A program made the position numbers and the translations under genes. Below the pieces are notes generated by a model, which had not been told where the DNA came from, ran no database searches, and was given only the letters and a program-made list of their open reading frames with translations. This document shows, piece after piece, positions 3,601 through 64,000 of a stretch of DNA of 64,000 bases; within the stretch, counting starts at the first letter, position 1, and each line of letters starts with the position of its first letter. Source of the stretch: Balanoglossus misakiensis (Eukaryota; Animalia; Hemichordata); the NCBI GenBank assembly GCA_040954595.2, contig CM082588.2, positions 3,784,156 to 3,848,155 on the forward strand, given 5' to 3'.

Positions 3601-5787
3601 CTGCGCTTAGGCTTCAAAGTGAAGGTATATCGTTCCAGGCGTCTAAAATTTAACACGTTTCAAGATTGCTCAAAGTAAGCGGCACGCTTCAGAAGCGCTC
3701 CTCGGCTTAAGGAACAAGTGAGAATTGATTGCTTTTTGTTCCGGTGGGTGTTTTTGTCAATGGCTTGGATGAAAAGAGGCGGGCATTTCACACAACACGT
3801 CGGACCCTTGATACCACGAATATGCACACGATAAAGACCGCCGACAAAAATTAAAACTACCGCCTAATGAAAAATACCCAAACCTCACCGGCTCTGATTT
3901 ACAATCAGCGCGAACAAGCCTTCGAGACTGTTACCAGTTCAGTCACTGATTGATTGCCTTAATTGTCCGTTAATTAAAATCTACCGATGCCATCACGACC
4001 AACGTTTTCAGAAACAAAATGCAATCAATAACATATATTACTATTTAATGACAAAGTATAAATTGACTGAGGCTGTGCTTATTCAGTAACGTCAGTATCA
4101 ATCTCGCCGATACGCAGAATCACGTGGAGAGAGGTGGGGGGGGGGGAGAGGGAGGGAAGAAGGTGACAAGAGAGACATGGTAAATGACTGGAATCCTGAC
4201 AAACAGCTTGTTACACCTGGGCCGACAGAAATACTTCTCTATGAGAAAGAGACAAAGAAACGAACTGTCATTGTAAGACGCAGATGCTCAGGTCACAATC
4301 GATTTCTGATGTCGAGCAAATATTCATATTTGGGGGTCAGAACTCAACGACGAGAATCACTGAACCCTCCGGCAGTCCAATTTAACTCAAAACACTGCCC
4401 AAAGCCCCGTTCCAATTACTCGCCGGGGTTGTAACCAATTTATCAACCATTCTGACCATTTTCTGACCCCGCGTGTTCGTTAATTTTTCTACACAGAAAA
4501 CTTTTTTTTGTTCTCGTTATTTTGAATATTAAACAATCCGCTGCCAAGAACGGTTTTCATTCACCAATCAGAACGCTCAATACTTTGACCAATGACAGCC
4601 ACGGGTAGAATGGCGTACATCTGATCTTTTCAATGAGCGCAGCAACAGAACTTGCAAAGTGTACAAGAATAGAGTATCGGTTGCAATATATATTCTCATT
4701 CCCTAGCCAGAACCCTCACTCCATCATGTCGCGCGTGCGTCTTTTATTGCTAGCCTGAGTGGACAGGCAACTAATTACTAAACCCTGATGGTTGTACATG
4801 GAAACACTGTTCAATCTAAAGCCGCCTTAATTGACTTCAGAGCACTTAATTAAAAATAACGCCCGTGACAGCAGTAAACTGTGAACACGTAATATCTGTG
4901 ATTAAATCCAAATATCCATAACTGTTTGCAGTTTTCGTTAACACGCATGGAAAGAAAATCGATGAATTGAAGGTAATTGAAGATTTATACATTATAATTA
5001 TTAAAAGAAATGTTTGCATATTAGGTAATAATTGCATTGATTGTGATCAAGGTTAAACTAGTAATTGTCCATACTTAATATGTAGTGTTTGGTACAGAAC
5101 ATTTGAAATTTATTATAGGATTTCAATAGTGGAAAATTTCATCTCTTAATAGTGCCGGCCCTCAGTTCAAGATAAGCATTATTATTTACAGGTAATGCAT
5201 GTGTGTAATGGGTCAATTGATGGAAGTGCGTTGCTACGCATTGCGCAATTATTGCTCGTGTAATCTGGAAAAGCAATTGAAACCGGCATACTCGGACATC
5301 GGTATTAAAGGGCGATTTCCCCTCGCGTAATTGTTTTTTTTCTCTGACCTCCTTCGGGTACGTTTGAGACGGTGCGGTGTGATTAGAGAAAACGCTCCCA
5401 CGAGAGAGCTATCTGGGCGGGATGTGACTAGAATCACCGGTTTCTTCGGAAAACAGTTTTTCTCTCATCACCTGGTATTAACACTGGCCGTTTTTCAATT
5501 GGCCGTTTTGTAATTGCCCGTATGATTAGCATGTGGTGTATTACGCCAAACTTTCGCTATTTTCGCTTGGTCACTCGACAACAGAACACCTGCAGTCTAT
5601 TCACGATTGTTATATAACCCACTTTGATATTCTGGACCAGATGTGATTCCTCAACTGACTGGGGACACCAACCTCGATTTAGACAAATATCCGCGCCCCG
5701 TTTCAGAAAATGCAAGCTATTTGATTTTATATACAGCGTAACAGTAGCTATATTAACGTAATGTATTTGGTTCTAGAGTTACGTTCA

Positions 5788-7145
<1,358 letters not shown>

Positions 7146-43272: not shown

Positions 43273-44975
43273 CGGAAAGAATCGACGGTTGTACTGATTT
43301 TAAATGAATTAAACTGAAAACATGAGATATCAATCAGTTTAGAAGAGAAAACACCACTGACAATAACTGTTTGAATAATGTGTGCAGTTTGAAAGCCTTG
43401 CTATCGTAGGTTGGAATGAAAACATTTCCTGTTTCACGAGATAAGCTTACCTGATAGGATGAAACTCTCCCTGGGGGCCAATTTCCTGTTTTCTCGGGCC
43501 TTGGCTTAGTTTGAGTGACTCTTCTCTTTGTCAAGGACGATACCCGCTGTAATTCAAATAAGTAACACGAGTACGAGGGGATTACACTTCAACTATGTAA
43601 AAAATTGAACAAAGCACATGGTGAGTCATATGTTCGCACGATAGCTCGGACGCAGCTGGTCTTGACGCACTCAGCGTGACATCGCCAACTCGCACGCAAG
43701 GGCGAGAGGGAGAAGTCAATGCTTCGTACCAGCCTCCACCGCCAACACATACTGTTGACGGCTTTTCAAATTAATACTTTGATTGACTGCTAATCCAAGA
43801 GTGTACACACAAAGTTGGTCGCGGCGCCGGGTAATGTACTGTACTTGACGCGACCTACATAAACACACACCCATTATAATGTATGTCCTGGTGACCGCAA
43901 AGTTGTAATTAAGTCTTAACGTGGACAGATGTTTTGCCGATATTTAAATTTCTGAAACATTTTCAATACCAGTGTCAACATGACCAATAAATATGCCACG
44001 TTTAATCTCAAAGTGACAACTATGGAAGAGATATATTCATGGATTTGGCTCGGTCCAGAGAAAAACAGAAATCAGATTAGGCTAGGCTGGAGACAAAACA
44101 TCGAAGTTTCTCACCTTGACGTCACAAAACGAAGTTATAGCTGGCGAGCGTTCACATCTCATCGCAGAAGACGTTGTATAAGGAAATTCCGAAGTTAGGG
44201 ACTTGCACTCTACGCTAAGCTTATAAAGTAGCCTAAGCTTCGAATACTCAAGAACAGGTTTTGCGGGCCTGCCAAAAGAAGGTTTCACATAATTCAATAA
44301 TGTCGCCACGCTGCACTGGAGTGATCTCGCCATGACCCCAAGAGGACAACACCTGTTTTCGCTGGTCCAAACTATTAGGCCTGAGTGAGGGACTGGTCAG
44401 TTGGGGTGGATTCTATTTTGTGGATATCAAAAAGTGGCTGCCCCCTCATGTTAAGAGCCAAGACGAATTTGATATAAAGTTTATATAAAAAATGTGATTG
44501 CATTATAATTAAATGTTTCTTTTTTTATTTTACCAAGTGCATGCTTCGTATTCGAAGCAGTGCATGATGATTTCAAGTTCTTGCCAGTCGACCACAAAAC
44601 CTCAAGCTACAGTACCATACTGTAGCAAAAAGGAACGTACGTACCTATTTCTAGACCAAGCTTTTTCAGAAGCTGACTAATAAGCAAGTTGGTGCGGCTG
44701 TAAGTGTTGAAATGAGTCCGAAACTAACCGAAAAACAAATAGATATCAGCGACGATGAAAATAGAACTGGAGGGAATCCCGCGCAGCCTCGCTTTCGGTG
44801 ACGACCGAGGGCATCCCCCGTTTTACGTCACTTCCGCCACATGTGTAAGTTACATCAGGGTCGCTGTGATCGCACGTCCACTGCTGTACTCACGGGATTT
44901 CTTGTTGAAATGTGAACGATCATTGACATTTTGGCGAGGTGAGATACTATTTTCGGGATTTTGGAAGCCAGGAGA

Positions 44976-47027
44976 ATGAGTTCGAAGTACTTACCGCGAT
45001 TGTGGACCAGATATCGCCCCAGTTTTTGCGGGCGTTTGTGTGGCTTCGATACAACACAATTGACCGCTGGTTCTGTGTCATACAGCGTTTGTGTACAGCA
45101 AAGGACTGATCGTGCAGCCTTGTTAGAAAGGTACGGTAAAAGCCGTTTGACGTGTCATTATCATTTTGCCAAAGAGGGACATGCTCTTCAAGGAGACACG
45201 GCACGGCCACTCCACCACCGGTACTCAACTCTGTGCGATGACCCCGTTGTATTCAAGGTCAAAGACCGACCGTCGATTTCTGCCACTCGCCGACGACCGA
45301 TCAGTTTCTTCGGCTTCGGATCGTCCGAGCAGAACGCCTGGCAGAAGGCGGTCTCGGAAGCCGAGAAGCTGGTCGGCTACCCGACGTCGTTCATGAGCCT
45401 TCGGTGTCTACTCAGCGACGAGCTGTCAAACGTGGCGATACAGGTCAGAAAGCTGGTCGGCACTAGGCATCCACTTCTGAAGACGGCAAGGTATGGTATG
45501 CCCATACACTCACGGTTGTCATTGGAGTACAGTTGCTTGTGATCTTGACTTGAGCTACTAGTACGCTACTCCAGCTAGTTACCATGGCACTATAATGCCA
45601 ATGTAATGGTGGCCACTTCTCTATTCACATGTTGAAAATTTCCAAGAGCATATACCAATAATAATATCATTATCTAATTTTGCAGGACATTTGTTTATGA
45701 TGGCAGAAACAATATGCAGACTCGTGGCCTGATTGTGCTGCTGATATCCAAAGCTGCAGGGCCAACCTCTGCAGCATCCACGTTAGGTGACGGTGTAGAA
45801 CCGAGCATCGTCAGTGGCATTTACGCCAGGTAAGCATTGAGAGTTACAAACAGTTTGTCTTAGAGTACCGGTGTCTCAGCCAGTATAACACTACCTTTTG
45901 TGTGTTTCCACGTCTCTGGCAGCCAAAGAGCTCTAGCGGAGATCACCGAAATGATCCACACGGCGTATTTAGTTCACAAGGGCGTGGTCAACCTGCGGGA
46001 CCTCACACCGGCAGACGGGCCGGAGAAAGACATGGAGTTTGGCAACAAGATGGCCGTGCTGAGTGGGGACTTCCTGCTGGCAAATGCTTCCACTGGACTC
46101 GCCGAGCTGCGTAATACTAAGGTAAGGGAATCTCATGGGAATTTTGAAAATCATAAATTCATGGGGAGAGGAACACATATTCTGTCATTTTCATTTTGTT
46201 TCATTTAGGTTGTTGAGATTGTTTCGAGCGCCATCAGAGACATGATGGAGGCAGAGTTCACTGGCTATTCCAACAGACAGACAGACTCCCCCGACAGGAA
46301 GATGGCTGTCTCTGATTGGTTGGAGTGGGCATTCCTGTCATCGGGCAGTCTAATTGCCAAGAGTTGTCAGGCGGCTCTCAGTCTGGCAAGTCACTCGGAC
46401 GAAATGCAGCAACATGCTTATGACTACGGCAAGAATATGTCCCTAGCACAGCAGGTGAGTTGTCATGTGCTCATATCAGTGTATTTGTGATAGACAGCCT
46501 CGTATTTAATACTCATCTTCAGCATCCACTATCAGAGATAGTTGTTCGCCATGACAGTCTTTTTGCTTTGTCTTGTTCAGTTATTCGCAGAATTATCCCA
46601 GTTTACCAATGGACCGTCGGCAGCACAGATAAATCTCAACTCTGTGCCAGTTTTGATGTTCCTTCAGTCCAAAGACGAGAATCACAATCTGGAGAGATAC
46701 AAGAAGAATGGTAAAATGGACTACAAAAGGGTATGCATGGTTATCATTATAAGTACAACTTTTCCCATCATTTCTAATGAAGGTAATTAAATAACCTAGC
46801 CGACTAGTCCAGCTGGCTCTCTACTTAATTGCTTTCATTTACTTTTAATTATCTTGCTTTTTTCTTTTCAGCTTCACACGGACATATCATCCAGCGATGC
46901 TATACACAGAGCCAGGTTGCTGTGTCACGAGTACGGACAGAAAGCATTGGAGGCCCTCAAGCCGTTCCCAGACAACGATGCCAGCAGAGCGCTTCAGAAT
47001 ATCATTCATGCGATCACTCGCAGATGA
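44976..47027 (+). CDS. PDSS2: All-trans-polyprenyl (decaprenyl) diphosphate synthase subunit 2; 6 coding exons, about 469 aa
   Basis: Exons 44976-45490, 45686-45829, 45923-46121, 46209-46454, 46581-46730 and 46872-47027, all GT-AG and phase-compatible, with TGA at 47025-47027. Motifs [90 protein letters not shown] and ASRALQNII. The first DDxxD motif is degenerate (LVHKGVVN), as in PDSS2 rather than PDSS1. Confidence 0.96.
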
Positions 47028-47241
47028 CCCCGTCATTCAGACTCTGTTGTTCATATTTTATAGACATTATTCTTAGTCCTGCTTTACAGAATCTGAAAAC
47101 AGGCTTCTAGGCTGCATGACATGATAAATTCCTTGGGGACTGATAGTGTGAATTAAAGTTTATTAGATTCGCATTCGATGCTTGTACAAATGTACTGGTG
47201 TAATTCCTACTATTTAATTTGCATGATGATCTAGCATATTT

Positions 47242-47837: not shown

Positions 47838-49868
47838 TCACATTTGCAAGTCGGCATACACAACATCCGTATCTTCCGAAACAATTTTCGGTTTGCGAGG
47901 TGACGATGACGTCAGATCCAAGTCAGCATACAGAAGTCCCTCTACATTCTTTACTTCTTTGACGTCATCGTTTGGAGGAGCGGAATCATCAATGGCAGTT
48001 AAGGGCGCATCCAAAACTTTGTCGGGGTGGGTTTCTTCGGGCTCCCCTGGAGGGCTGTACAAATCTTCCTCGCGTTGTTCATCAACATCATTTTGGCGTC
48101 TGTTCACGTTGGTGGGTTTTGGAGGAGGGCGTGGTTTCTTTACTACTGTGTACTCAACACCGACCAGGTTCTCCCTTTCCACGTCATCGTGCTTGTTGTC
48201 GTTGTTTGGAGTGACAGGATTGTCCTTGCTAAGTTGGGAAGTGTCCGATGTTCCAACAGAACTGGTTACTTCCGTCTGCGGAGGACTGTGTGAGTCATCG
48301 GGACCCCTGTCACTTTTTGGCTTGGGGAAAGGACGTGGCTTCTTGATCTCTGCGTACCCGACATCGATCAATTTATCCTCACCTCCCTCATCCATGACTT
48401 CACCGTCGTATATATTGCCGCCGGCTTCAGTAGCTTTCATTCCATTGTCTACCACTCGCATGCCCTCGATGGTACCCTGAATTTGCTCGCTGACCGTGTC
48501 GTATTCAACGCGCGTCTCAGGAGAGCCACGTGCGCCGCTGTTACCGTCTTTTTCGTTGGGTGCATTTTCTTCGAGTTGCACCTGCGTTGATGTGAAGGCG
48601 TGGTCGGGATTTTCCGCCAGTTTGCTGTTGCTTCTTCTGTGTTTAATGATACACACAATCGCCAAGACTACGATTAAAACTAATAGAAGTCCACCTCCTG
48701 CACTCGCACCAACGATTATGACGTCTACCCCAACTTGTGTGTCCAGTTTTGGTTGTTTTGAAGTTGCCTGTGACTGAGGCTGTGTCGCTATGGACGACAC
48801 AGGCGACCTATTAGTATTACCTGTCGTCGTTGGGGGAGCTATACTAACTGCCAAAAGAGACGAGATCTTCGTTGCACCGACGTCATTGGTAGCTTCACAT
48901 TCCACCAATGCATTGCGATCTTCATATCTTATAGATAGTATTGTCAGTGTTGAAATATTATCTGAAGCTTCAATGCGAAACATTTCTTGAGTGTCGTCAA
49001 TCAAATTAGTTCCAAAGTACCACTGAACAGAAGTGATCTCTGGGTTTGCATTCCATTGACAAGTAAATGTCCTGACTTCGCTTTCACTTCCTGGTTCAGT
49101 TCCAACCTGTTGGAGTGTCAGCTTGGGTTTGTATTGAATGTCAAATGGACCAATTTCACAGGTTTTGTCCTGCAAGTGGAAGGGACCCAAACGTCGTGAT
49201 GTACATGTTAATTTGATTCCCTGTTCAGTGAAGGTCGGTGACCAGATATAAAATAAATTCAACATGGAAATACTTCGCGATAAAGTGGTGTTCAGTTCGC
49301 GACCTGTGTCATTTTGTACAGACCAACTCAAGGTGACTTCCGGGTTTCCTTTCTCACAAAGGCAGCCCAAACTAACATCCTCACCTTCACGCACAGTTGT
49401 ATCGATATACGTGCAAAATGGGTGTGTAGGAGGAGGGTCTTTACGGACAGTCAAATATGCGTCGTCGGATCGTAGTATTTCTGTTCCAGGTTCACCATTG
49501 GTTACATCGTTCACGTAGCATGCGTAAACGCCACTGTCTGGTCCAGCATAGTCGTGTTGTACGTTCAGTATACGCAAGTTTAGATCCAAGGAATTTTGAG
49601 CCGTCGGTATTAAGTGAACACTATAGTCTGAATCAACACCCAGGTGTGATGGCAAGTTCTGAATCATGCTTGACTGCGCTGATATTTCCACTCCATTTTT
49701 TCTCCAATGGTGTCGATAACTATGACTGTTGTTAGCGATGGCACAATACAGAGTAATAATCTCGTTTTCCTCCGCGGTGGTGTTCATTGGTGTTTCTGTG
49801 AACACGAGTTGACAACTCACAATCTGCCAGGAAAGTCCAATAACACAAACCAAGTAAAGCATATCCAT
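47838..49868 (-). CDS. IgR-A: type-I TM IgSF receptor with uninterrupted CDS (signal peptide, V + C2 + C2/I Ig domains, S/T stalk, TM) and a long ITIM-rich tail, about 676 aa
   Basis: ATG at 49868 gives signal peptide MDMLYLVCVIGLSWQIVSC. Ig hallmarks TLYC...W...DSGVYAC, SLGC...LSW...LTC and FTC...QWY...VEC. TM VIIVGASAGGGLLLVLIVVLAIVCII followed by KHRR. Tail motifs VEYDTV, VGYAEI, VEYTVV, LLYADL, VVYADL. Confidence 0.92.
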   Translation of the reverse strand: MDMLYLVCVIGLSWQIVSCQLVFTETPMNTTAEENEIITLYCAIANNSHSYRHHWRKNGVEISAQSSMIQNLPSHLGVDSDYSVHLIPTAQNSLDLNLRILNVQHDYAGPDSGVYACYVNDVTNGEPGTEILRSDDAYLTVRKDPPPTHPFCTYIDTTVREGEDVSLGCLCEKGNPEVTLSWSVQNDTGRELNTTLSRSISMLNLFYIWSPTFTEQGIKLTCTSRRLGPFHLQDKTCEIGPFDIQYKPKLTLQQVGTEPGSESEVRTFTCQWNANPEITSVQWYFGTNLIDDTQEMFRIEASDNISTLTILSIRYEDRNALVECEATNDVGATKISSLLAVSIAPPTTTGNTNRSPVSSIATQPQSQATSKQPKLDTQVGVDVIIVGASAGGGLLLVLIVVLAIVCIIKHRRSNSKLAENPDHAFTSTQVQLEENAPNEKDGNSGARGSPETRVEYDTVSEQIQGTIEGMRVVDNGMKATEAGGNIYDGEVMDEGGEDKLIDVGYAEIKKPRPFPKPKSDRGPDDSHSPPQTEVTSSVGTSDTSQLSKDNPVTPNNDNKHDDVERENLVGVEYTVVKKPRPPPKPTNVNRRQNDVDEQREEDLYSPPGEPEETHPDKVLDAPLTAIDDSAPPNDDVKEVKNVEGLLYADLDLTSSSPRKPKIVSEDTDVVYADLQM

Positions 49869-49965
49869 GACTCCAACTTGATCGACCAACGAAAAAGTAC
49901 CGTTCGTCCACTCTAAGTCTAGTCTCCAAAAGAGCAATGTTAACGCCTTCGCCTCGGTGCAAATC

Positions 49966-49984
49966 GTTTCCTCAATCCGGGTTA
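49966..49984 (-). promoter_or_regulatory. Conserved upstream element of IgR-A (two ETS-like cores)
   Basis: Plus-strand GTTTCCTCAATCCGGGTTA; near-identical copies upstream of IgR-B and IgR-E. Confidence 0.55.
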
Positions 49985-50132
49985 TGTTACACTTTTACTG
50001 TTAAACAGGTATGCTATCTCTTTGATATGCAAATTGATGTTTAAATGGTGGAGTTAGGTGCACCGGTGAACCGGGCTTCGTGCTGTAGAAATAAAAGCGG
50101 AAATACATAGTGTTTTACTCCTCAATAGATCT

Positions 50133-51686
50133 CTACTTTATTAGACTCTCATAGGTGGCCACATTTTCTCCATGGCAACTGTCTCCACGCACAAGCACAG
50201 CATACCCTTCCTCGTTAACGATATCCAATTCTCCATCCCCGCTGTTGCTAGCTTGCTTGACGGTTTCATATGTAGGGCTATTCTTTTCTGCCATCTCAAG
50301 GCTGGTTTTATTCTTTGACCCAGTGTTGGCGTGTATTTCTTTGACATTACTGACAACATAGTCCTTTGAACGAGGATCTTCGCTCTGGGTGTAGTTAGCT
50401 AGGTATCGGATACGACGACAAGCTTTGTAGAGGAAGAATGCAAGAATTACCGCGGTGGCAAATGTCAGAGCAAACAAACCACCCAAAACAGCCACGACTG
50501 AATTGTCACTGTCAGTCTTGTTGTACAGTTTGGCAGATGCTGTGTTAAGATACACTAAAGATGTTGTTTCCACTGTCACAATGCTTGTTTGCAACGATAA
50601 ACCGTTGCTTGTCTGCGTCACAGTCTCTCTCTTGGATGTTGGGAATGGAGTCAAAACACTCAACAAGGACGAGATCTTCGTTGTACCGACGTCATTGGTA
50701 GCTTCACATTCTACCACTGCATTGCGATCTTCATATCTTATAGATGTTATTGTCAGTGTTGAAATATTATCTGAAGCATCAATGCGAAACCTTTCTTGAG
50801 TGTCGTCAATCAAATTATTTCCAAAGTACCACTGAACAGAAGTGATCTCTGGGTTTGCATTCCATTGACAAGTAAATGTCCTGACTTCGCTGTCACTTCC
50901 TGGTTCATCCCCAACCTGTTGGAGTGTCAGCTTGGGTTTGTATTGAATATCAAACGGACCAATTTCACAGGTTTTGTCCTGCAAGTAGAAGGGACTTGAA
51001 CGTCGTGATGTACAGGTGAATTTGATTCCCTGTTCGGCAGTGTAGTTCGGTGACCACATATAAGACAAATTCAACATGGACGTACTTCGCGATAAAGTGG
51101 TGTTCAGTTCGCGGTCTGTGTCACTCTGTACAGACCAACTCAGGGTGACCTCGGGGTTTCCTTTCTCGCTGGTGCAACTCAAGCTAACTTCTTCGCCTTC
51201 ACTCACTGTTGAATCGATATAAGTGCAAAATGGGTGTGTAGGAGGAGGATCTTTACGAACAGTCAAATATGCGTCGTCGGATCGAAGTATCTCCGTACCA
51301 GGTTCACCATTGGTTACATCGTTCACGTAGCATGCATAAACGCCACTGTCTGGTCCAGCATAGTCGTGTTGTACATTCAGTATTCGTAGGTTTAGATCCA
51401 AACTAATTTGAGCCGTTGGTATAAGGTGAATACTGTAGTCAGAATCAACACCAAGATGTGCTGGCAAGTTCTGAATAATGCTTGACTGCGCTGATATTTC
51501 CACTCCATTTTTACTCCAGTGGTGTCGATAAGTATGACTGTTGTTAGCGATGGCACAATACAGAGTAACAATATCGTTTTCCTCAGCGGTGGTGTTCATT
51601 GGTGTTGTGGTGAACACAGGTTGACTACTTACAATCTGCAAAGACAGTTCCAGAATGCAACATGCAAGTAAGCCGAACGCTTCCAT
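50133..51686 (-). CDS. IgR-B: type-I TM IgSF receptor with uninterrupted CDS; ectodomain paralogous to IgR-A; short tail with hemITAM-like NEEGYAVL and terminal YESL; about 517 aa (alternative ATG at 51728)
   Basis: Signal peptide MEAFGLLACCILELSLQIVSS; three Ig domains about 89% identical to IgR-A by manual count; TM VVAVLGGLFALTFATAVILAFFLY; stop TAG at 50133-50135. Confidence 0.92.
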   Translation of the reverse strand: MEAFGLLACCILELSLQIVSSQPVFTTTPMNTTAEENDIVTLYCAIANNSHTYRHHWSKNGVEISAQSSIIQNLPAHLGVDSDYSIHLIPTAQISLDLNLRILNVQHDYAGPDSGVYACYVNDVTNGEPGTEILRSDDAYLTVRKDPPPTHPFCTYIDSTVSEGEEVSLSCTSEKGNPEVTLSWSVQSDTDRELNTTLSRSTSMLNLSYMWSPNYTAEQGIKFTCTSRRSSPFYLQDKTCEIGPFDIQYKPKLTLQQVGDEPGSDSEVRTFTCQWNANPEITSVQWYFGNNLIDDTQERFRIDASDNISTLTITSIRYEDRNAVVECEATNDVGTTKISSLLSVLTPFPTSKRETVTQTSNGLSLQTSIVTVETTSLVYLNTASAKLYNKTDSDNSVVAVLGGLFALTFATAVILAFFLYKACRRIRYLANYTQSEDPRSKDYVVSNVKEIHANTGSKNKTSLEMAEKNSPTYETVKQASNSGDGELDIVNEEGYAVLVRGDSCHGENVATYESLIK

Positions 51687-51776: not shown

Positions 51777-51794
51777 GTTTCCTTGATCCGGGTA
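51777..51794 (-). promoter_or_regulatory. Conserved upstream element of IgR-B
   Basis: Plus-strand GTTTCCTTGATCCGGGTA, 91 nt upstream of ATG 51686. Confidence 0.55.
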
Positions 51795-53108: not shown

Positions 53109-55142
53109 CTAAAAAGAGTTTTCATCTTCCAGTGTTATTATCGTGTTGTCCTCGCAAGACTGCGCGTCTTCCTGCGCGGTGACTTGGTCCGTTTCCATGA
53201 CATCCATGAGAATATCATCACACTTGGAAGGCAGTGGGGGTGGCGGCGCATCTGCGCTCTCTTCCTCCCCTCCGACGTTATCATTGACTGTCCCGGTCTG
53301 GCTGTGATCTGTGTCGCCTGCAGGTTTTGGTTTCTCCCGTTTCAGGGATCTGTCTGGCTGGGCATACAGATCGGCAGTTTCCGTGTCGGTGTTTGTCGTG
53401 TTTTCTGCGCTTTCCTCGATTTGCGAAATTGATGGATCGACGCCATCTTGTGCCGACATTTCCGTCATCTCTTCGCCGTCGACGGCGAAGTACGGGTTCT
53501 CGTATCCCGCTTCCTTCAGTCGCAATCGGAGATTCTCAAGAGACTCCTCCTGCGGGGAATACTCGTCTGCGTTTTTCTGTCGCCGTTTGCGATTGTTTGC
53601 CATCAGGAGGATGGCGAAGATAATCGTGAAGGCGATCAAGGCCAACAGACCGATCACTACGGCGACTATGATCACCCACAATTCAGTCCCCGTCGAGGTT
53701 GGTTGTCTGTCAAAGCCCCGGCCGACAGTCGGCGATTCTTTTCTGGTTGTGGCCGTTCGGGTGGTTGGCACCTCTGGTTGTGGTGATGATCTGAGATTAC
53801 TGCGAGAAGTTGCTGTGTCTGATACCATCACAGTGCTCAGTTGCTGGGTCTGTGTGCTTGGTTTGATTGGCGACTTTGTAGTTCGATGACTAGTAGTAAT
53901 AGTGTCCCGTGTTGTACGGCCACTTGTTGGAGTGCTCCTGTGCGTTGTAAAGGCAGCTGCGGTGGTACTTATTCGATTATCCCCGGTCGTTTGTTGCGAT
54001 GTGCGTTCTGATGTCTCTTCGGGTGGGCTTGTGGATGTCACTGCTCCGGTACTACTTTCATGTGTCGGCGCGATGGTTGACGAACTGGAATCCGTCACGT
54101 ATCTCCCAACTGTCAACTGTATCGCTTTGAACCAATAGTAAACACTGTTGGGAAATTCTACACCACATTTGTACAGTCCACTATCATCAGGTTTAACGTA
54201 ATCGAATATAATGTTATAATCGTTGGGAAAATTACTTAACTCGACGGCAATAGGCAATTCATCACCATGTGCATCATGGTATTTCACAAATTCATTCCAT
54301 GCGAAGCTTTGAGTGTCTTTATGCCATACCAGGTTCTGACCAGGTTGTAGCTCTGTCACCTCACACCGTAATTCGTAGGTCTCATTTTCAACAGCATATT
54401 CATGAATCGTTTCGATATCGGCACTTTCTACGACTGTCAGCCATGCAGGCCGCGACCACTCGATGTCACCAAACTCGGAGTCTACCCCACACCTGTATAT
54501 ACCTGTGTCTTGGACTGTGACGTTCGAGATACTAATGTTGTATTCGCCTTGCGTGTAGTCACCCATAAAACTAACACGACCAGGAAAGTTGTTCATGTCC
54601 TCGACAGTGTCGTTGAAAGTAAATATCTCCGAGTCCTTACTCCAGCGGAGATTTGGGTTGGAACCTATGATATTGATGCCACATGACAGTAACGCCGTTC
54701 CCCCTTCATACATTCCTGAACTACTTGGATGAAGGATAATATGTTCCGATACAGTGAGTGTGGCTCCACCAGACCAGACGAGCTCACCGGTGTCGTATCG
54801 AACACCACACCTATAAACACCACTGTCTTGAACTTGAACGTTGGGGAACTGAATACTAGTATTGTACCGCCCTCGTTGGCGGTTCATGTCGACAGTAAAC
54901 GGGGAAACACTCGGGTTATGAACACGGAGCTCATCGATTGAAATGATCAGGTCGTCTTTCTTCCACAGCAAGGATTGGTCAGCCATGAGTCCATCTACAC
55001 TACAAACAAGTGTCACAATTTCGTTCACAGATACATGGATATTGCTGGGTTCCTCGATAAAAGTCACTGACTGTACATAGGAGAGGCAAACCACCACCAA
55101 CAGAATAAGCAGACAGCGTTTATTTCCACCTTGGGAAAGCAT
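53109..55142 (-). CDS. IgR-C: type-I TM IgSF protein with uninterrupted CDS; three V/I-set Ig domains, long mucin-like S/T stalk, acidic tail; 677 aa
   Basis: Signal peptide; three repeats of C...W.KD...D(S/T)G.Y.CGV (DSGVYRC, DTGIYRC, DSGLYKC); TM LWVIIVAVVIGLLALIAFTIIFAILLMA then NNRKRR; tail GYENPYF, DLYAQP, PPPPLP. Confidence 0.92.
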   Translation of the reverse strand: MLSQGGNKRCLLILLVVVCLSYVQSVTFIEEPSNIHVSVNEIVTLVCSVDGLMADQSLLWKKDDLIISIDELRVHNPSVSPFTVDMNRQRGRYNTSIQFPNVQVQDSGVYRCGVRYDTGELVWSGGATLTVSEHIILHPSSSGMYEGGTALLSCGINIIGSNPNLRWSKDSEIFTFNDTVEDMNNFPGRVSFMGDYTQGEYNISISNVTVQDTGIYRCGVDSEFGDIEWSRPAWLTVVESADIETIHEYAVENETYELRCEVTELQPGQNLVWHKDTQSFAWNEFVKYHDAHGDELPIAVELSNFPNDYNIIFDYVKPDDSGLYKCGVEFPNSVYYWFKAIQLTVGRYVTDSSSSTIAPTHESSTGAVTSTSPPEETSERTSQQTTGDNRISTTAAAFTTHRSTPTSGRTTRDTITTSHRTTKSPIKPSTQTQQLSTVMVSDTATSRSNLRSSPQPEVPTTRTATTRKESPTVGRGFDRQPTSTGTELWVIIVAVVIGLLALIAFTIIFAILLMANNRKRRQKNADEYSPQEESLENLRLRLKEAGYENPYFAVDGEEMTEMSAQDGVDPSISQIEESAENTTNTDTETADLYAQPDRSLKREKPKPAGDTDHSQTGTVNDNVGGEEESADAPPPPLPSKCDDILMDVMETDQVTAQEDAQSCEDNTIITLEDENSF

Positions 55143-56464: not shown

Positions 56465-57982
56465 TCACTTCTTCCCAGTGGTAAGTTTGGTGTAGACTTC
56501 ATTACTTGGCCCTGTCAGACTTTCATATTGGCCGTCTGGTGCTCCGCCGGCTGTCTCCGGCCTGACCTGGACACGGTTGTTGTCTTGGCTGGTTTCTGTA
56601 GGACGGGCTGAAGGGATAGCGTCGGAGGAGGTTCCATTTGTCTCAGCTTCTAACTGAAAATAAACAGGTGTATTTTCTTGGCTGGTGTCGTTTCCAGTTC
56701 GAGGGGCCGACGGGGCACCGTTGTGCTGGCTTTCGTTTGAGTCCGGAATGATTTCAATGTAAGAGCGCGTAGTTTCTGATCTGGCCGCCCTGTCGGTCGT
56801 CGGGTTGGGCGGAGGTGTTCCCGGCTCGGGGCGGATGTAGTTATACTCGTCTTCGCTTTTGGGCTCAGGTCTTGCGTACGAGTACGTCAAGACATTGCTG
56901 AACTGTTCTCCGGTCGCCTCTCTACTCTGACCCTTTCCATCTTTTAATTTCAGCCCCTTGCACTTGATGATGACAGCTCCGACGAGAACGGTGACCAGGG
57001 AGCCGAGAAGGAGACCGCCGACGAGAGAACCGATGACTGACCACGGGGGTTTGTTGGCGGTCTGACGAGCAAAGGTGCCGTGTACGGTGGAGTTTCGCGT
57101 CGAAGTATATGCACTTGAACGCGGAACAGTAGCCGTGTTCGTAGTCAGAGATCCTTCAGTTGAAAGAGAAGTCGTTGGATTCTCTGCGATGACGTAAAAG
57201 GGCCCTACAGAGCACGAGCGATCCGCTTGAAGCCCCGGATGTTGCAAAGTGCAGGTGAACTGAAAATTCAACAGACGAGCCGATGTCGGAGTCCACTCAT
57301 ACGAATCTACTCGCAACCCGTCTCCCCGTGTATAAGAATACGATTGGAGAATTACCCGTTGGTCGCTGCGACGCCAGTTCAAATTCACGGCGGGAAAACC
57401 GGGGTCTGATGTACAGAGCAAACGAACGGTCTCTCCGAGTGTGAATTTAACGGGTGTGTTCGTCGTATCGACATAACGACCATCCAAATGAACCATCGAA
57501 CACTCTGGATAAATATTTCGAGGAACCGCATATACGGTAACCGTGGCATCCGAAGACATTCCCACTAATGGACTCGCCTGTTGTTGATTAGTTAGAGTCC
57601 TGTAGACTGCGCAGGTGTATTGGCCACCGTCCATTTCTGCCGTTCCTGTGGTAATACCAAATACGAGTAAACCATAGGTATTTTCTGCGCCGGTTGAGGT
57701 CACCAAGTATCTCTCGTCGGTGCCCCCGACATTTTGTCGCATCTGGTAATTATCACTCACGATGACGCCATTTTTCAACCAGGACACATACTCGTCAGTA
57801 GCGAGGGTGCCAGCTAACTTGCAGGCCAAGTAAAAAGATCTGGCCGAACCCCCGTATTGGACAAAAACTTCCTGGTCGCTGGGTTCGACTGCGAATAACC
57901 CGTTGGTGTTTCCGACCAACACGCACAGGCAAACCAACAGCCGCAACCACACCGGACAATTGCCAAGTCTTTCAGCGGCCAT
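56465..57982 (-). CDS. IgR-D: type-I TM IgSF receptor with uninterrupted CDS (V + C2 domains) and a canonical C-terminal ITAM, about 505 aa
   Basis: ATG at 57982 gives MAAERLGNCPVWLRLLVCLCVLVGNTNG; Ig cores YLAC..SWLKNG..DGGQYTC and LLC..LNW..FTC; TM WSVIGSLVGGLLLGSLVTVLVGAVII; tail ends DGQYESLTGPSNEVYTKL. Confidence 0.92.
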   Translation of the reverse strand: MAAERLGNCPVWLRLLVCLCVLVGNTNGLFAVEPSDQEVFVQYGGSARSFYLACKLAGTLATDEYVSWLKNGVIVSDNYQMRQNVGGTDERYLVTSTGAENTYGLLVFGITTGTAEMDGGQYTCAVYRTLTNQQQASPLVGMSSDATVTVYAVPRNIYPECSMVHLDGRYVDTTNTPVKFTLGETVRLLCTSDPGFPAVNLNWRRSDQRVILQSYSYTRGDGLRVDSYEWTPTSARLLNFQFTCTLQHPGLQADRSCSVGPFYVIAENPTTSLSTEGSLTTNTATVPRSSAYTSTRNSTVHGTFARQTANKPPWSVIGSLVGGLLLGSLVTVLVGAVIIKCKGLKLKDGKGQSREATGEQFSNVLTYSYARPEPKSEDEYNYIRPEPGTPPPNPTTDRAARSETTRSYIEIIPDSNESQHNGAPSAPRTGNDTSQENTPVYFQLEAETNGTSSDAIPSARPTETSQDNNRVQVRPETAGGAPDGQYESLTGPSNEVYTKLTTGKK

Positions 57983-59089: not shown

Positions 59090-61216
59090 TTACATCCTTA
59101 ATTCGGCGTAAACGACGTCATCATCTTCGATTCTTGGCTTCGTGGTGTGACGTCCTGGTGTCACATTTGACAGATCCAGGTCAGCGTATGTCAAGCCTTC
59201 AACGTTTCTAGATCGACGGTCGTCACCTCCGTCCGCGTTCTGTCGCTGTCCCGGGGACTCGAGCACATCGTCGTACACTGGGTTTCCCGGAGATGGCTGT
59301 GTCCTCCGCTGTGGGTCTGTGTCACGGCCTCCGTGCTCCGATTGGCCACTGACGCTTCTTCGACTCGCCGGAAGATCGGTAACGTTTTCATAAGTGGCTC
59401 CTGCCCGATTGTCGACGGTCACGCCACGGGCTCCAATACGATTGGGCTTAGGCTTGACGTCTGGTTGCTTGTTCCCGCTCTCGACTCTTGTGTGACCTGG
59501 CCTGTTTGCGTCATCTTCGGGAGAATTGTCCGAATTGGCCTCGTGGTCTTTACCGTCACTAATGGCCAGTTCCAACGTTTCGGTTGACGGTTCCACAAAG
59601 TTCCTGCCCTTCTCTGAGACATGCTGGCTTTTTATATTGCTCGCCACATCCACATTTTCAGTGGCGTTGCTGTTCGGGTCTTTTTTACGCGTTACCTTTG
59701 CCTTGAGCTGGATGTCTATTGAAGCTGCATTGACCGAGTTTTCAGACGCATTCCTGTAAGCGACGTTGACCACCGCATACGTCTCGGCAACATCGCTGGC
59801 GTCCCGGCCAATTTCGCCTTTCTCGCCGTCTTTGACATCGCGCTGCTGCGTTGATTTTGTTGACTCGGTGCTCTGTCGGCGTTTTTTTACCACGACTACG
59901 ACGATTACTACAACCCCACCGGCCAACAGGATCAAACCACCCGCTACCACACCGGCGATAACCCCGGTGTCCAGGCGTTGATCAACCGCCGGAGCCAAGT
60001 CTCCTTGGATTGGAGCGGTGGTCGTGCCATAGACATCGGTTGTACTTTCCGTTGTGTCCAAGTCGCCTGCTGCTGTTGTTGTCGCACGTGTACTTCTTTG
60101 TATCTCCGTGGTAACCGGTGGGATGTCAACAACAAAACTGACATTGGCACTGCCAGTCCCTATGCCATTGGTCATTTCACATCTTACCTGATGAAGGCCA
60201 TTTTCCTGGTTACCGAAACCAGAACTCCGCAGTGAAAGATTCTGTAAGCTGAACCGACCATCCCCGGGGGTCACTGCCTCGTCATCGTAAAACCACTGGA
60301 TTTGTGTGACGTCAGGGTTCGAATCTGGAATACAGGTAATGGTGATGACGTCTTCCGAAGACGTCAAGAATTCCCTCGTCGCGTTTGCCTCTACCGTCGG
60401 TGCGTACTGGATGTCAAAACCTCCCACGCTGCAAGTTCTGTCCGACGTCATTCCGGGATGTGATAGGGTGCAGGTGAAATTTACACCTGGGTCATCGAAT
60501 CTAGACGGTGTCCACGCATATGTAATGAACAGCAAACCGTCGCCAGTGGCCCCGGATTGGTCCCTTTGCAAGGGGTCGTCGACATCATTCCGACTCCAGT
60601 ACATGGTGACAGTAGGGTAACCGGGGTCTGAGAAACATGTCAGGGTATACGTGCCTCCTTCACGAACTGCGATCGGTATCGACGTCGCCAGGCCGAAACC
60701 GAGCGAATCTGACGCCGTGCACATGGGGAACTCTGGCCGAGGAACTTCGTAGATAGTCACAGTGGCAACTCGCGACGTTTCAACCACGTAATCACCTACT
60801 GTTGTTATTGCGCATTTGAAAGGACCAACGTCGGTGTATGCAGTGTCCCTCGTTACGCCATACACTACCAGAGAGTAGCCAACGCTATTACCGAGATAGT
60901 TTACATCAGTCAGAAAGTACCTGTCCCTATCGACGATATACTCACTTATGGAACGAAAGTTCTTATTATCGGCAAAGATGATGTTATTCTTGTACCACGA
61001 TATCTTCTGATCCGTGTCCAACGTCGATACGATGCAGTACAAACTGAAAGACCTAGTTTGTCCTGGTTCAATGGTGACCGTCTGGTCTTGTGGTTCAAAT
61101 ACAAAAAGCTGCTCGGCGAGCGAGGTGTCCGGCCAACTTGCCAACAGGAACGCCCCGACGACTAAAATTGCTCTGGTCTTGCGTGAAGAACTCGTGTGCC
61201 CCATCGAGACCTCCAT
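59090..61216 (-). CDS. IgR-E: type-I TM IgSF receptor with uninterrupted CDS (V + C2 + C2/I), long tail with two C-terminal ITIMs, 708 aa
   Basis: Signal peptide AILVVGAFLLASWPDTSLA; three Ig domains; TM VIAGVVAGGLILLAGGVVVIVVVVV then KKRR; tail YENV, YDDV, LTYADL, VVYAEL. Confidence 0.92.
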   Translation of the reverse strand: MEVSMGHTSSSRKTRAILVVGAFLLASWPDTSLAEQLFVFEPQDQTVTIEPGQTRSFSLYCIVSTLDTDQKISWYKNNIIFADNKNFRSISEYIVDRDRYFLTDVNYLGNSVGYSLVVYGVTRDTAYTDVGPFKCAITTVGDYVVETSRVATVTIYEVPRPEFPMCTASDSLGFGLATSIPIAVREGGTYTLTCFSDPGYPTVTMYWSRNDVDDPLQRDQSGATGDGLLFITYAWTPSRFDDPGVNFTCTLSHPGMTSDRTCSVGGFDIQYAPTVEANATREFLTSSEDVITITCIPDSNPDVTQIQWFYDDEAVTPGDGRFSLQNLSLRSSGFGNQENGLHQVRCEMTNGIGTGSANVSFVVDIPPVTTEIQRSTRATTTAAGDLDTTESTTDVYGTTTAPIQGDLAPAVDQRLDTGVIAGVVAGGLILLAGGVVVIVVVVVKKRRQSTESTKSTQQRDVKDGEKGEIGRDASDVAETYAVVNVAYRNASENSVNAASIDIQLKAKVTRKKDPNSNATENVDVASNIKSQHVSEKGRNFVEPSTETLELAISDGKDHEANSDNSPEDDANRPGHTRVESGNKQPDVKPKPNRIGARGVTVDNRAGATYENVTDLPASRRSVSGQSEHGGRDTDPQRRTQPSPGNPVYDDVLESPGQRQNADGGDDRRSRNVEGLTYADLDLSNVTPGRHTTKPRIEDDDVVYAELRM

Positions 61217-61306: not shown

Positions 61307-61324
61307 GTTTCCTGGATCCGGGTA
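61307..61324 (-). promoter_or_regulatory. Conserved upstream element of IgR-E
   Basis: Plus-strand GTTTCCTGGATCCGGGTA, 91 nt upstream of ATG 61216. Confidence 0.55.
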
Positions 61325-62432
61325 CTTTCACTTATTCACTTCTCTGTTCATTGTTGTGTAAATCACTTGACATTGGACGATTAATTTACATATGAATGGA
61401 TACCAGAATGGGAATCGAAGGGGAAACCCCCGATAACAATAACGTAAATGAGCATAGCATTGACCGTAATAGTCATTTCGAAGACGTTCGAGTAATTCGA
61501 AATTGGTATCTCGATAACGCCCATGTGACTAGGCTAATCAAACGCCTTTCAGTTCCCGTTATCTCATTAAGACGCAATAATTCAACAACTGTATTGCTTA
61601 CTATCAATGGCCACGACGGATGTCACCAGTGAATAAAATACTTTTATTTCAAGAAAGTGGATAATATACATCACTCTCACGATGGTTATTTTCAATGGAA
61701 ACAACAGGCATTTCATGCAAATCAATCACCACGGTAACATGTACATGATATCATACTTATATTTACACACACCACTGAGAATGAAAGTTACACTTCTCAT
61801 GTTTCGTTTTTGACAACAGTATTAACATAAAAAGGTACACAATTTACAAATAAATCTGGATCTGAAATAAACAAGATCGGACGGAATAAACAACACTCGA
61901 ACTGGCCAAGACACGTGTGAGAATGAAATGGACACGACTGGGCCATGATCAGGTAGTATAGTGCGCCACCAATGGCAGAAATACCAACTTCTTTCATGAA
62001 GAGTATAACATCACATTCCTTGAACTATTTTCCTGTTCGTATCTAGGACAAACTCTGCTGCACTTAGTTTATCGTGGCGCAACATGAGTCAGTCCTTGTG
62101 TTCCAATTTTTTCTCTGAATGGATTTAAACTGCCTGCACATCGCATGGCAGGCAAAGTATGTGCATTAATGCCAATCTGACATTATCCATACAAACAGAT
62201 GCAACTCTGGTCCCACATAACACTACCCAGTTCGGTTGAGCGATGTGAGGTATTTGGTTTCCAAGGCACCCCGTGCCTTGCAGGGGGTAATTATTGCCAA
62301 TTATTGCTTGGAATGTCGTCCACCCTACATCGCGGAAAAGGCTCTTTGTGATTGGGTAACACAGGCACCTGAACAAGGGACATCATGGATAAAAAAATCA
62401 ATCAGAGAAGGGCTTCTTCAAAGGCACTGTCA

Positions 62433-64000
62433 TCATGTTGTTACATTGGCTGAGTCGTGTGAAGGGTTGACCCACAGCGTGCTCAAACATTTTGCCTCCT
62501 GCAAAACAAGAAAACAATAAAAAATCCATGATGAATGGCCACGAAAAATAGTGACGCAATGGGACAACGATGTCTTCTCTTGTAATGTTTCATGTCCTCC
62601 CCAGGAAGTCCTCAGAGATTACTTGGGAGGAAAATATTATCGTTGATATTTGCACAAACAGTGGTCTCTAAACTACTAACCTTAATGACGCAATCATCCA
62701 AGATTGACTTCATTGTCAGTGGTAACGGCTTAGGGGGTGGGTGTGGCGAAGTCTCATGTTCTGAGCTTTCACTCTGTTCTGCTGACTTTATTCTCCTGTG
62801 AATGAAAAAAAATAAACGGTTTATATTCACAAAATAAAACAAGTTGCTCACAGAAGAAAAGCACAGCAGTGTCTGTCTACCTTTGGGGCTTTTTCACACT
62901 TGGATGTGGCGCTCACCTTTTGCCAGAAGACCCCCTGCTGTGTCTGCTGCCGCTCTTCGATGACGTCATACTTTTCTTGCTGCTGACGGTGCTGTAGACC
63001 GACCTGTGTTCCGAGAGTTCGTCTATTGCGGACAAGGGTGCCGATGGGTTGGCCGACCCGACTGTGCTCGGCAAAGCCAGGTAGCCGGTGGATTTGTCCT
63101 CCTCCAGAGGGGGTAAGTTGAGTTCTGGGGGTCCAGCTGCCCTTGGGGGTGAGGGTAGTACTGGATATTTTTGCTTTGGTTCATGGGAGACCATGCTTAT
63201 CTGAAGGGGGAGAAAGAATAAAAATGAAAATTCTATCGTGTTGGGGTATACTGTACCAGAATACAATAAATAGCATTTTTAGGTGTTTGGACAGAAACCT
63301 GATGTGCGACAGAAGTTTTGTACTTACAAGTTCTCCAATATTTGGTCCTTCTGTCATCCAAGCGAAATCTTCTTTCTTATCAAGAATTCTGAAAAATGAG
63401 AGAACAGAAACCCATAAAGAACAAATCTTGCTGAGTAGATTACATCACTAAGTAATATGATTACACCAACACTGTGGGGTTTGGCCTTTCTAGGTGACAA
63501 CATACCTGTGTGTAGCTGCCTGGTGGGCCAGCGCGTACTCGTACATTGTCCGGAGACGTCGCCTCTCGAAGTCTCGGATCCTGGCCCTCAACCGCATCTC
63601 TTCGTTCAACCGGATCATCTCGGGGTCTTCCTTCTTCGGCGCCAGGTCTAACGTGAACGTCGCTAGTTGCGGAAGCTCAATCTGGGATGCACAAAAAATA
63701 CACAGGGCGGAAATGCCAAAATTCATTGATGTGCAGTTGCAAGTGTGTCACATGCAATAAAGTGACATTCAAATGTGAAGCACAGAAAAAAGTCAAGAAG
63801 CCAAAATGCACACAGACGAGTTTCCAATACAACTGTACACAGAAGTGGTCACCAACACAGGTTGGACTGTATTCTGAAATATGCACTGACATACCTTGGG
63901 AAATCTTTGATCCACAGCCAGTGCCTTTGGGTGGATGGATGTTCTCCGTCCCTTCACAGGCGTTGCTAAGTAACTGGAAGGACCTTGCTGAGCCTGGATG
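62433..64000 (-). CDS. 3' coding exons of an unidentified multi-exon gene (5' part beyond the right edge)
   Basis: Phase-compatible GT-AG exons: >64000-63895, 63681-63506, 63388-63328, 63200-62917, 62795-62681 and 62498-62433 (TGA). They give ...IHPKALAVDQRFPK-IELPQLATFTLDLAPKKEDPEMIRLNEEMRLRARIRDFERRRLRTMYEYALAHQAATHR-ILDKKEDFAWMTEGPNIGEL-ISMVSHEPK...PLPLTMKSILDDCVIK-EAKCLSTLWVNPSHDSANVTT*. Candidate AATAAA on the minus strand at 61648-61643. Confidence 0.8.

Follow-up and report, generated by a model that had tools for sequence, protein, structure and literature searches.

A candidate inhibitory/activating pair of immunoglobulin receptors with a shared ectodomain and unrelated tails in the acorn worm Balanoglossus misakiensis

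How do two neighbouring receptor genes come to carry nearly the same ectodomain on unrelated tails, and what might such a pair do? The question is raised by two genes, here called A and B, in a stretch of 64,000 nucleotides (nt) from the acorn worm Balanoglossus misakiensis (GenBank assembly GCA_040954595.2, contig CM082588.2, positions 3,784,156 to 3,848,155; hereafter the window, to which all positions refer). Both belong to a cluster of five long minus-strand genes, A-E, each a single open reading frame (ORF) with immunoglobulin (Ig) domains. A and B are intronless and adjacent, with 264 nt between them (Table 1). Vertebrate Ig pairs such as CEACAM1/CEACAM3 and Xenopus Ceacam are described as linked genes with binding domains 80-93% alike, one partner having inhibitory motifs of the immunoreceptor tyrosine-based type (ITIMs) and the other a tail resembling the corresponding activation motif (ITAM) (PMC5112662). 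In this study, we show that A and B are genuine neighbours, that each encodes a single-pass Ig receptor, and that the two have an ectodomain in common while their tails are unrelated. On balance we favour the reading that they form an inhibitory/activating pair in the manner of CEACAM1/3, their ectodomains homogenised by repeated, patchy conversion.

Two genes, one ectodomain

Positions 48859-49836 of A and 50668-51648 of B are 90.5% identical by blastn (981 columns, one gap), which agrees with the limits given in an earlier note on this DNA (about 48859-49830 and 50668-51640), and the ectodomain DNA is identical in 892/988 columns. The mature ectodomains share 285 of 320 aligned residues and differ by 35 substitutions and one indel, where the note had counted about 36 differences over about 322 residues. 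The likeness ends at TKISSLL, as abruptly as had been claimed: beyond this point the DNA of A and B is alike only at the level of shuffled sequence (stalk 46%, z 0.9; tail 47%, z -0.3), and the cytoplasmic tails give no alignment (p 0.92). The 5' limit is not abrupt, weaker likeness persisting in the signal peptide (21/38 columns alike, z 3.4) and in the region of an upstream box (50/81 columns, z 6.1). This box, CCGGATnnAGGAA, is found exactly some 95 nt 5' of A, B and E and not of C or D (four matches at one mismatch versus 0.77 expected). We take its core to be ETS-like, and ATTTGCAT, just upstream of the box in A, to be octamer-like. Reference A has an extra cysteine in the second Ig domain (D2) beside the canonical one (residue 171, window 49358), which is serine in B.

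Could the tandem be an assembly artefact, two alleles written one after the other? Two DNA runs of one sample (X1 and X2) cover the stretch; this is possibly the source sample, and the runs are then not independent biology. The summed X1 contig depth over the first two Ig domains (D1-D2) is about 127, made up of four contigs of 27-38, and these four distinct ectodomain copies are two genes on each of the two haplotypes of one diploid. A 743-nt contig with 0 differences links the A upstream region and the B tail to the end of B's third Ig domain (D3), reaching 30-37 letters into this shared domain. Likewise, a 1,373-nt X1 contig (depth 35) places a second-haplotype ectodomain upstream of A. The A stalk and transmembrane (TM) region also shows two alleles, the second having 28 differences over about 290 nt and lacking 54 and 21 nt, both in frame. 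An artefact would fit the single-haplotype depth of the B tail (28.2), and among the listed contigs none spans both genes; the junction of the A stalk with D3 is unbridged by 31 letters. The earlier note had itself named an artefact or collapsed haplotypes as a danger. With both genes and their unlike tails found in short-read contigs, this explanation is largely refuted, and we consider it extremely improbable.

The same contig reveals how the second haplotype differs. It matches the A upstream region to 50065, continues with 1,145 unlike letters in place of 850 nt of the reference, and resumes at the D2/D3 boundary; X2 has a 196-letter loose end at the same position 50065. The 1,145-nt segment is unlike anything at 80%, and no joint places it elsewhere within 46.5-62.5 kb. 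The second chromosome appears to carry an ectodomain in B's place, but its D3, stalk, TM and tail are either different or strongly diverged. SIGLEC14/5 deletes one ectodomain, whereas the second haplotype here swaps the back half and keeps two. A fusion deletion of the SIGLEC14/5 type is ruled out by the four ectodomain copies.

Probable conversion between the ectodomains

Overall synonymous divergence (dS) between A and B is 0.23, and the ratio of non-synonymous to synonymous divergence (dN/dS) is 0.27, so that the protein is also kept by selection. The divergence is patchy. By domain, dS is 0.28 in D1, 0.35 in D2 and 0.065 in D3, with four synonymous differences in about 65 sites of D3 against 40 in 159 sites of D1 and D2 (Fisher p=0.00075); the corresponding non-synonymous contrast gives p 0.61. 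Variants were compared in 38 ectodomain rows, drawn from 40 of 193 rows plus four more, and copies were assigned to haplotypes by their depth values. Among these rows, both second-haplotype copies carry letters at sites 49669 and 49673 that are found in neither reference gene, and nine sites split two-and-two with B's letter. No single tree fits these patterns. Reference B D3 is near A D3, while nothing 80% alike is present at this place in the second-haplotype upstream gene: reference B D3 is closer to its paralogue than to its own allele.

A diverged upstream box and signal peptide beside a 90% identical ectodomain fit an old whole-gene duplication followed by homogenisation. Taken with the patchy synonymous divergence and the grouping of variants by haplotype rather than by locus, this makes it likely that repeated, patchy gene conversion has kept the ectodomains alike, the process which the earlier note had proposed. 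A single recent partial duplication would instead have put the A ectodomain onto an unrelated stalk and tail, with neither ongoing conversion nor selected pairing. Such an event is suggested by the abrupt 3' end of the likeness and by the lack of an orthologous pair in our searches. We give it a slim chance, since the upstream box and signal peptide are homologous but far more diverged, dS differs fourfold among domains, the site patterns of the four copies are incompatible, and two ectodomains are present on both haplotypes. A and B are closely linked, with highly similar ectodomains, and the within-individual tests point to homogenisation restricted to the ectodomain.

Tails and binding face

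The A tail contains the five loose ITIM matches listed in the earlier note (VEYDTV, VGYAEI, VEYTVV, LLYADL and VVYADL), four of them strict (shuffle p about 5e-5 for five), and is homologous to the tail of E (0/1000 shuffles). The pattern NVEGLxYA[DE]L...YA[DE][LIV] is found in 5/25 rows, namely A, E, Ptychodera P0194 and P0281, and Saccoglossus P0149, and Glandiceps P0204 has a looser form of the terminal motif pair. Retention of this pair across acorn-worm families, in otherwise unalignable tails, argues for function. By sequence, A is the partner with ITIMs and its tail is of inhibitory type; phosphatase recruitment would be expected by analogy with vertebrate ITIMs and the amphioxus BbLcLRR (PMC8211107).

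The B tail has no ITIM, as the earlier note had stated, and no charged residue is present in its TM. Its candidate activating module also lies where it had been placed, NEEGYAVL at 50193-50216 with a terminal YESL 13 residues on. A spacing of YxxL-x13-YxxL is reached by shuffled tails with p 0.017. FcgRIIA has a spacer of 12 residues. The likeness of NEEGYAVL to a hemITAM proved partial: it has the acidic lead-in and YxxL, with acids at -2 and -3 only and not at three positions. The proposal that B's output is activating and opposite to A's fares similarly, with a candidate YAVL/YESL module that is non-canonical, unconserved in the relatives found and apparently changed on the second haplotype. 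Activation by the B tail may be regarded as plausible.

AlphaFold2 models the ectodomain of B as a three-Ig rod with an N-terminal V-type domain (predicted local distance difference test, pLDDT, 92; predicted template-modelling score, pTM, 0.80), the fold of CADM, nectin and Kirrel proteins. Its best structural matches score about equally (Z 16.5-17.9) at some 20% identity (Rst/SYG-1 D1-D2, Necl-4, NEGR1, DIPs, SIRPalpha and nectin-1), and a sequence search of the PDB gave only weak, generic Ig matches. Siglec V domains have a sialic acid-binding arginine in the F strand and extra cysteines. Here the F strand, GVYACYVND, is without arginine, and D1 has the two canonical cysteines only. Judged on these motifs, A and B are not Siglecs, and B is by definition not a hemITAM receptor. 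Of the Siglec-5/14 hallmark invoked by the earlier note the logic of pairing stands, while the Kirrel/CADM/nectin-like rod and the uncharged TM of B do not agree with it.

A number of observations weigh against a homogenised opposing pair. A hemITAM is defined by three acidic residues at -2, -3 and -4 of a single YxxL (PMC3576117); B has N-E-E-G before the tyrosine, and a second YxxL. The canonical ITAM, Yxx[L/I]-x6-9-Yxx[L/I], has a consensus spacer of 6-9 residues (10.1101/2022.03.04.482883), and B reads YAVL-x13-YESL. In shuffle tests p is 0.001 for the strict pattern [DE][DE]GYxx[LI], which was picked after sight of the motif, and 0.058 for a looser acidic-YxxL one. No relative found conserves the motif, which on the second haplotype is apparently missing or greatly altered, and the B tail is faintly like those of D and E (p 0.005 each, among 10 pairs). 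Amphioxus Syk is reported to suppress NF-kB (PMC13344425). As regards the ectodomain, the nearest folds are adhesion molecules. As regards conversion, the longest identical run between A and B, 73 nt, is not significant (p 0.059), and the haplotype-shared signal consists of two sites 4 nt apart among the 38 rows. No A/B ectodomain orthologue above about 36% identity was found, so that the within-individual tests alone bear on conversion: a first search gave one match at 30% identity, another gave 683 matches at E<=0.001, the best 150 of 683 being at 22-36%, and a profile search gave 6 generic Ig proteins only. In a tree of 25 rows (C left out, no vertebrate rows) A and B share a long stem of 1.66 with 100/100 support.

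Two further readings bear on function. B might be a non-signalling or endocytic decoy which shares the binding face of A and removes or competes for its ligand, its YxxL/V motifs being sorting signals. Neither the ITAM nor the hemITAM definition fits B, its tail is unconserved and replaced by different DNA on the second haplotype, and the terminal YESL fits the endocytic YxxL/M/V/I/F class (PMC5112662). We nevertheless hold a decoy to be rather unlikely: a paired YxxL with acidic lead-in is rare among relatives (5/98 tails carry any YxxL-x6-13-YxxL, and 0/98 carry [DE][DE]xYxx[LI]), and canonical ITAMs are present in D and in Ptychodera P0159. Alternatively, A and B could act in adhesion or allorecognition through trans binding, either to each other or each to itself, with a homophilic face kept alike and tails serving unrelated, non-opposing pathways. 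The closest folds, Rst/SYG-1/Neph1 (D1-D2; Z 17.9, root mean square deviation 3.2, 199 aligned), Necl-4 and nectin-1, are in its favour. So are changes in one second-haplotype copy, which has seven replacements in D1 residues 53-81 (window 49628-49712; two change charge; in both X1 and X2), five of them within residues 61-68, which the B model places on strands C'-C''. This cluster may hint at selection on the binding face, short of a significant test. A homodimer prediction for B D1 scored 0.00 and speaks neither for nor against. The conserved dual ITIM and the neighbouring ITAMs point rather to tyrosine-motif signalling, and we regard adhesion as the sole role as clearly unlikely. Adhesion and opposing signals are not mutually exclusive. 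CEACAM1 is both an adhesion molecule and a signalling receptor.

The cluster, its relatives and the meaning of the pair

The cluster is flanked by a polyprenyl-synthetase gene on one side and by a spliced gene on the other (Table 1). D has a canonical ITAM, DGQYESL-x7-YTKL (shuffle p 0.003), and is the best activating candidate of the cluster. It is only 36% identical to the ITIM-bearing E, by which E and D are ruled out as a second homogenised pair. C has a long Ser/Thr stalk and NPxF-like and YxxP sites in its tail, and the other four genes are not its close kin. In a further run, X3, a GT..AG joint in the neighbouring prenyltransferase gene makes it likely to be RNA; its contigs fall on C, D and E and none on A or B, a gap in cover from which nothing follows about expression. 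A metabotropic glutamate receptor (mGluR) is represented in the window by its first exon, whose identity is 84% with Ptychodera flava (96% covered), 87% with Saccoglossus, 81% with Glandiceps and 62-73% with fish. Ig relatives in Ptychodera and Glandiceps are apparently co-located with mGluR1 on one contig each, suggesting conserved linkage.

Table 1. Features of the Ig receptor cluster and its surroundings in the window
Feature	Position	Strand	Remarks
Gene A	47838..49868	-	single ORF, 676 aa: signal peptide, V-C2-I ectodomain, S/T/P-rich stalk, TM (residues 388-408), 268-aa tail
A mature ectodomain, common with B	48852..49811	-	D1 49443-49811, D2 49134-49442, D3 48852-49133
A terminal dual ITIM-type motif LLYADL ... 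VVYADL	47847..47936	-	kept in E and in Ptychodera/Saccoglossus relatives
A, three more ITIM-pattern matches VEYTVV, VGYAEI, VEYDTV	48141..48509	-	no conservation seen in relatives
A upstream box CCGGATnnAGGAA	49968..49980	-	about 95-100 nt 5' of ATG
Gene B	50133..51686	-	single ORF, 517 aa: signal peptide, V-C2-I ectodomain, stalk, uncharged TM (residues 397-417), 100-aa tail without ITIM
B mature ectodomain	50661..51623	-	AlphaFold2 three-Ig rod, pLDDT 92
B candidate activating module	50142..50216	-	NEEGYAVL (50193-50216), 13 residues, YESL (50142-50153)
850-nt stretch differing on second haplotype	50066..50915	.	most of B D3, stalk, TM, tail, 3' flank; 1,145 unlike letters there instead
B upstream box	51779..51791	-	exact CCGGATnnAGGAA match
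Gene C	53109..55142	-	677 aa with three V-set domains, a long stalk and a TM; neither ITIM nor ITAM in the tail
Gene D	56465..57982	-	505 aa, two Ig domains, TM, canonical ITAM YESL-x7-YTKL at 56483-56527
Gene E	59090..61216	-	708 aa, V-C2-I, tail homologous to that of A, same dual ITIM (59099-59194)
E upstream box	61309-61321	-	exact CCGGATnnAGGAA match
Metabotropic glutamate receptor, first exon	5785-6576	-	81-87% identity to three acorn worms
Polyprenyl synthetase exons	44961-47110	+	neighbour of Ig cluster
Spliced gene 5' of E, last exons	62400-64000	-	one piece: no Pfam match

Ptychodera flava has a comparable pair, P0281/P0159 (XP_070567943/XP_070567944), identical in 599/664 positions; these are database gene models and could be alleles. 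P0281 retains the dual ITIM. P0159 ends before it and has two canonical ITAMs (spacer 7 twice), where P0281 is without the second tyrosine pattern. As in A and B, a 90% identical pair of the same family has opposite motif content, on the same contig as mGluR1. The Ptychodera proteins differ from A and B in having four Ig domains and in having been made, according to these models, by truncation and tyrosine differences within one homologous tail; they fall in a separate clade, and are thus an independent pair. No other pair with shared ectodomain and swapped tails stood out among 163 Ig proteins, in a library of one protein per 50% cluster.

Among known systems, CEACAM1/3 and Xenopus Ceacam resemble A and B in their linked Ig genes, ITIM versus ITAM-like tails and tracts with few synonymous changes. 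A and B differ in being invertebrate and intronless (tract ends are not exon ends), in sharing the whole three-domain ectodomain, and in having the newest tract in the membrane-proximal D3. Partial ectodomain conversion between neighbours is also described for Siglec-5/14 (PMC4042635) and as 'merohomogenization' for KLRC/PIR (PMC3210942), and the activating partner of Siglec-5/14, too, differs among haplotypes (PMC4042635). Siglec-14, however, signals via DAP12, whereas B has no charged TM residue, and A and B have no sequence link to Siglec V domains. The likeness to Kirrel/Neph/SYG-1, CADM/Necl and nectin (best matches Z 16-18; relatives are auto-annotated as CADM- or Kirrel-like) is at the level of the fold, with about 20% identity and other tails. 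Besides vertebrate pairs, ITIM/ITAM-type Ig families are reported from tunicates and cnidarians (PMC12065747, PMC11999971, PMC13358205). Botryllus FcoR (PMC12582321, PMC12065747) and Hydractinia Alr (10.1101/2022.03.04.482883) are, like A-E, clustered Ig receptors of invertebrates, and their tails have ITIMs, ITAMs or hemITAMs. The motif switches between alleles of FcoR3/4, and the two-acid 'hemITAM-like' motifs PDDVYAIL and ADDVYAIL resemble that of B (PMC12582321). In contrast to A and B, these families are diverse, with an average identity of 32% in FcoR, and they switch through alleles or splicing, and the available text of these sources describes no adjacent homogenised-ectodomain pair on unrelated tails. 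In the open-access literature (supplements excluded) we found no hemichordate paper that treats this family or a pair of this kind.

How might an inhibitory/activating pair work? A would be a long-standing member of the family. A self ligand, or a microbe that exploits it, would engage its D1, and the dual ITIM, once phosphorylated, would recruit a phosphatase of SHP/SHIP type. B may be an older paralogue: it has the same upstream box and a tail faintly like those of D and E, and DNA of the A lineage would have overwritten its ectodomain, latest in D3. The same ligand on B would lead to phosphorylation of YAVL/YESL and recruitment of a tandem-SH2 kinase of Syk type, and so to uptake or activation. 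B would be the fast-turnover partner, unlike between haplotypes. In anatomy and evolution, A and B work like a paired receptor, and membership of the class would call for an activating function and a shared ligand. It is conceivable, if doubtful, that the cluster as a whole is a generator of opposing pairs, in which an ancient ITIM receptor time and again gains an activating copy as its twin, whether by ectodomain overwrite (A/B) or by truncation with ITAM gain (Ptychodera), the activating slot being a haplotype-swapped cassette under balancing selection.

Homogenised paired receptors are documented in mammals and frogs, and ITIM/ITAM Ig receptors in work on tunicates, cnidarians, oyster and amphioxus, in the available text of which we found no such homogenised pair. 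The locus lends itself to cloning and assay, its genes being intronless and four sequence variants being present in one animal. With this hemichordate case one can test whether decoy logic is a trait of old standing in deuterostomes or emerges wherever there is ITIM/Syk signalling. If the cluster is indeed a generator of opposing pairs, pathogen-driven paired-receptor dynamics would predate or parallel those of vertebrates in a non-chordate deuterostome.

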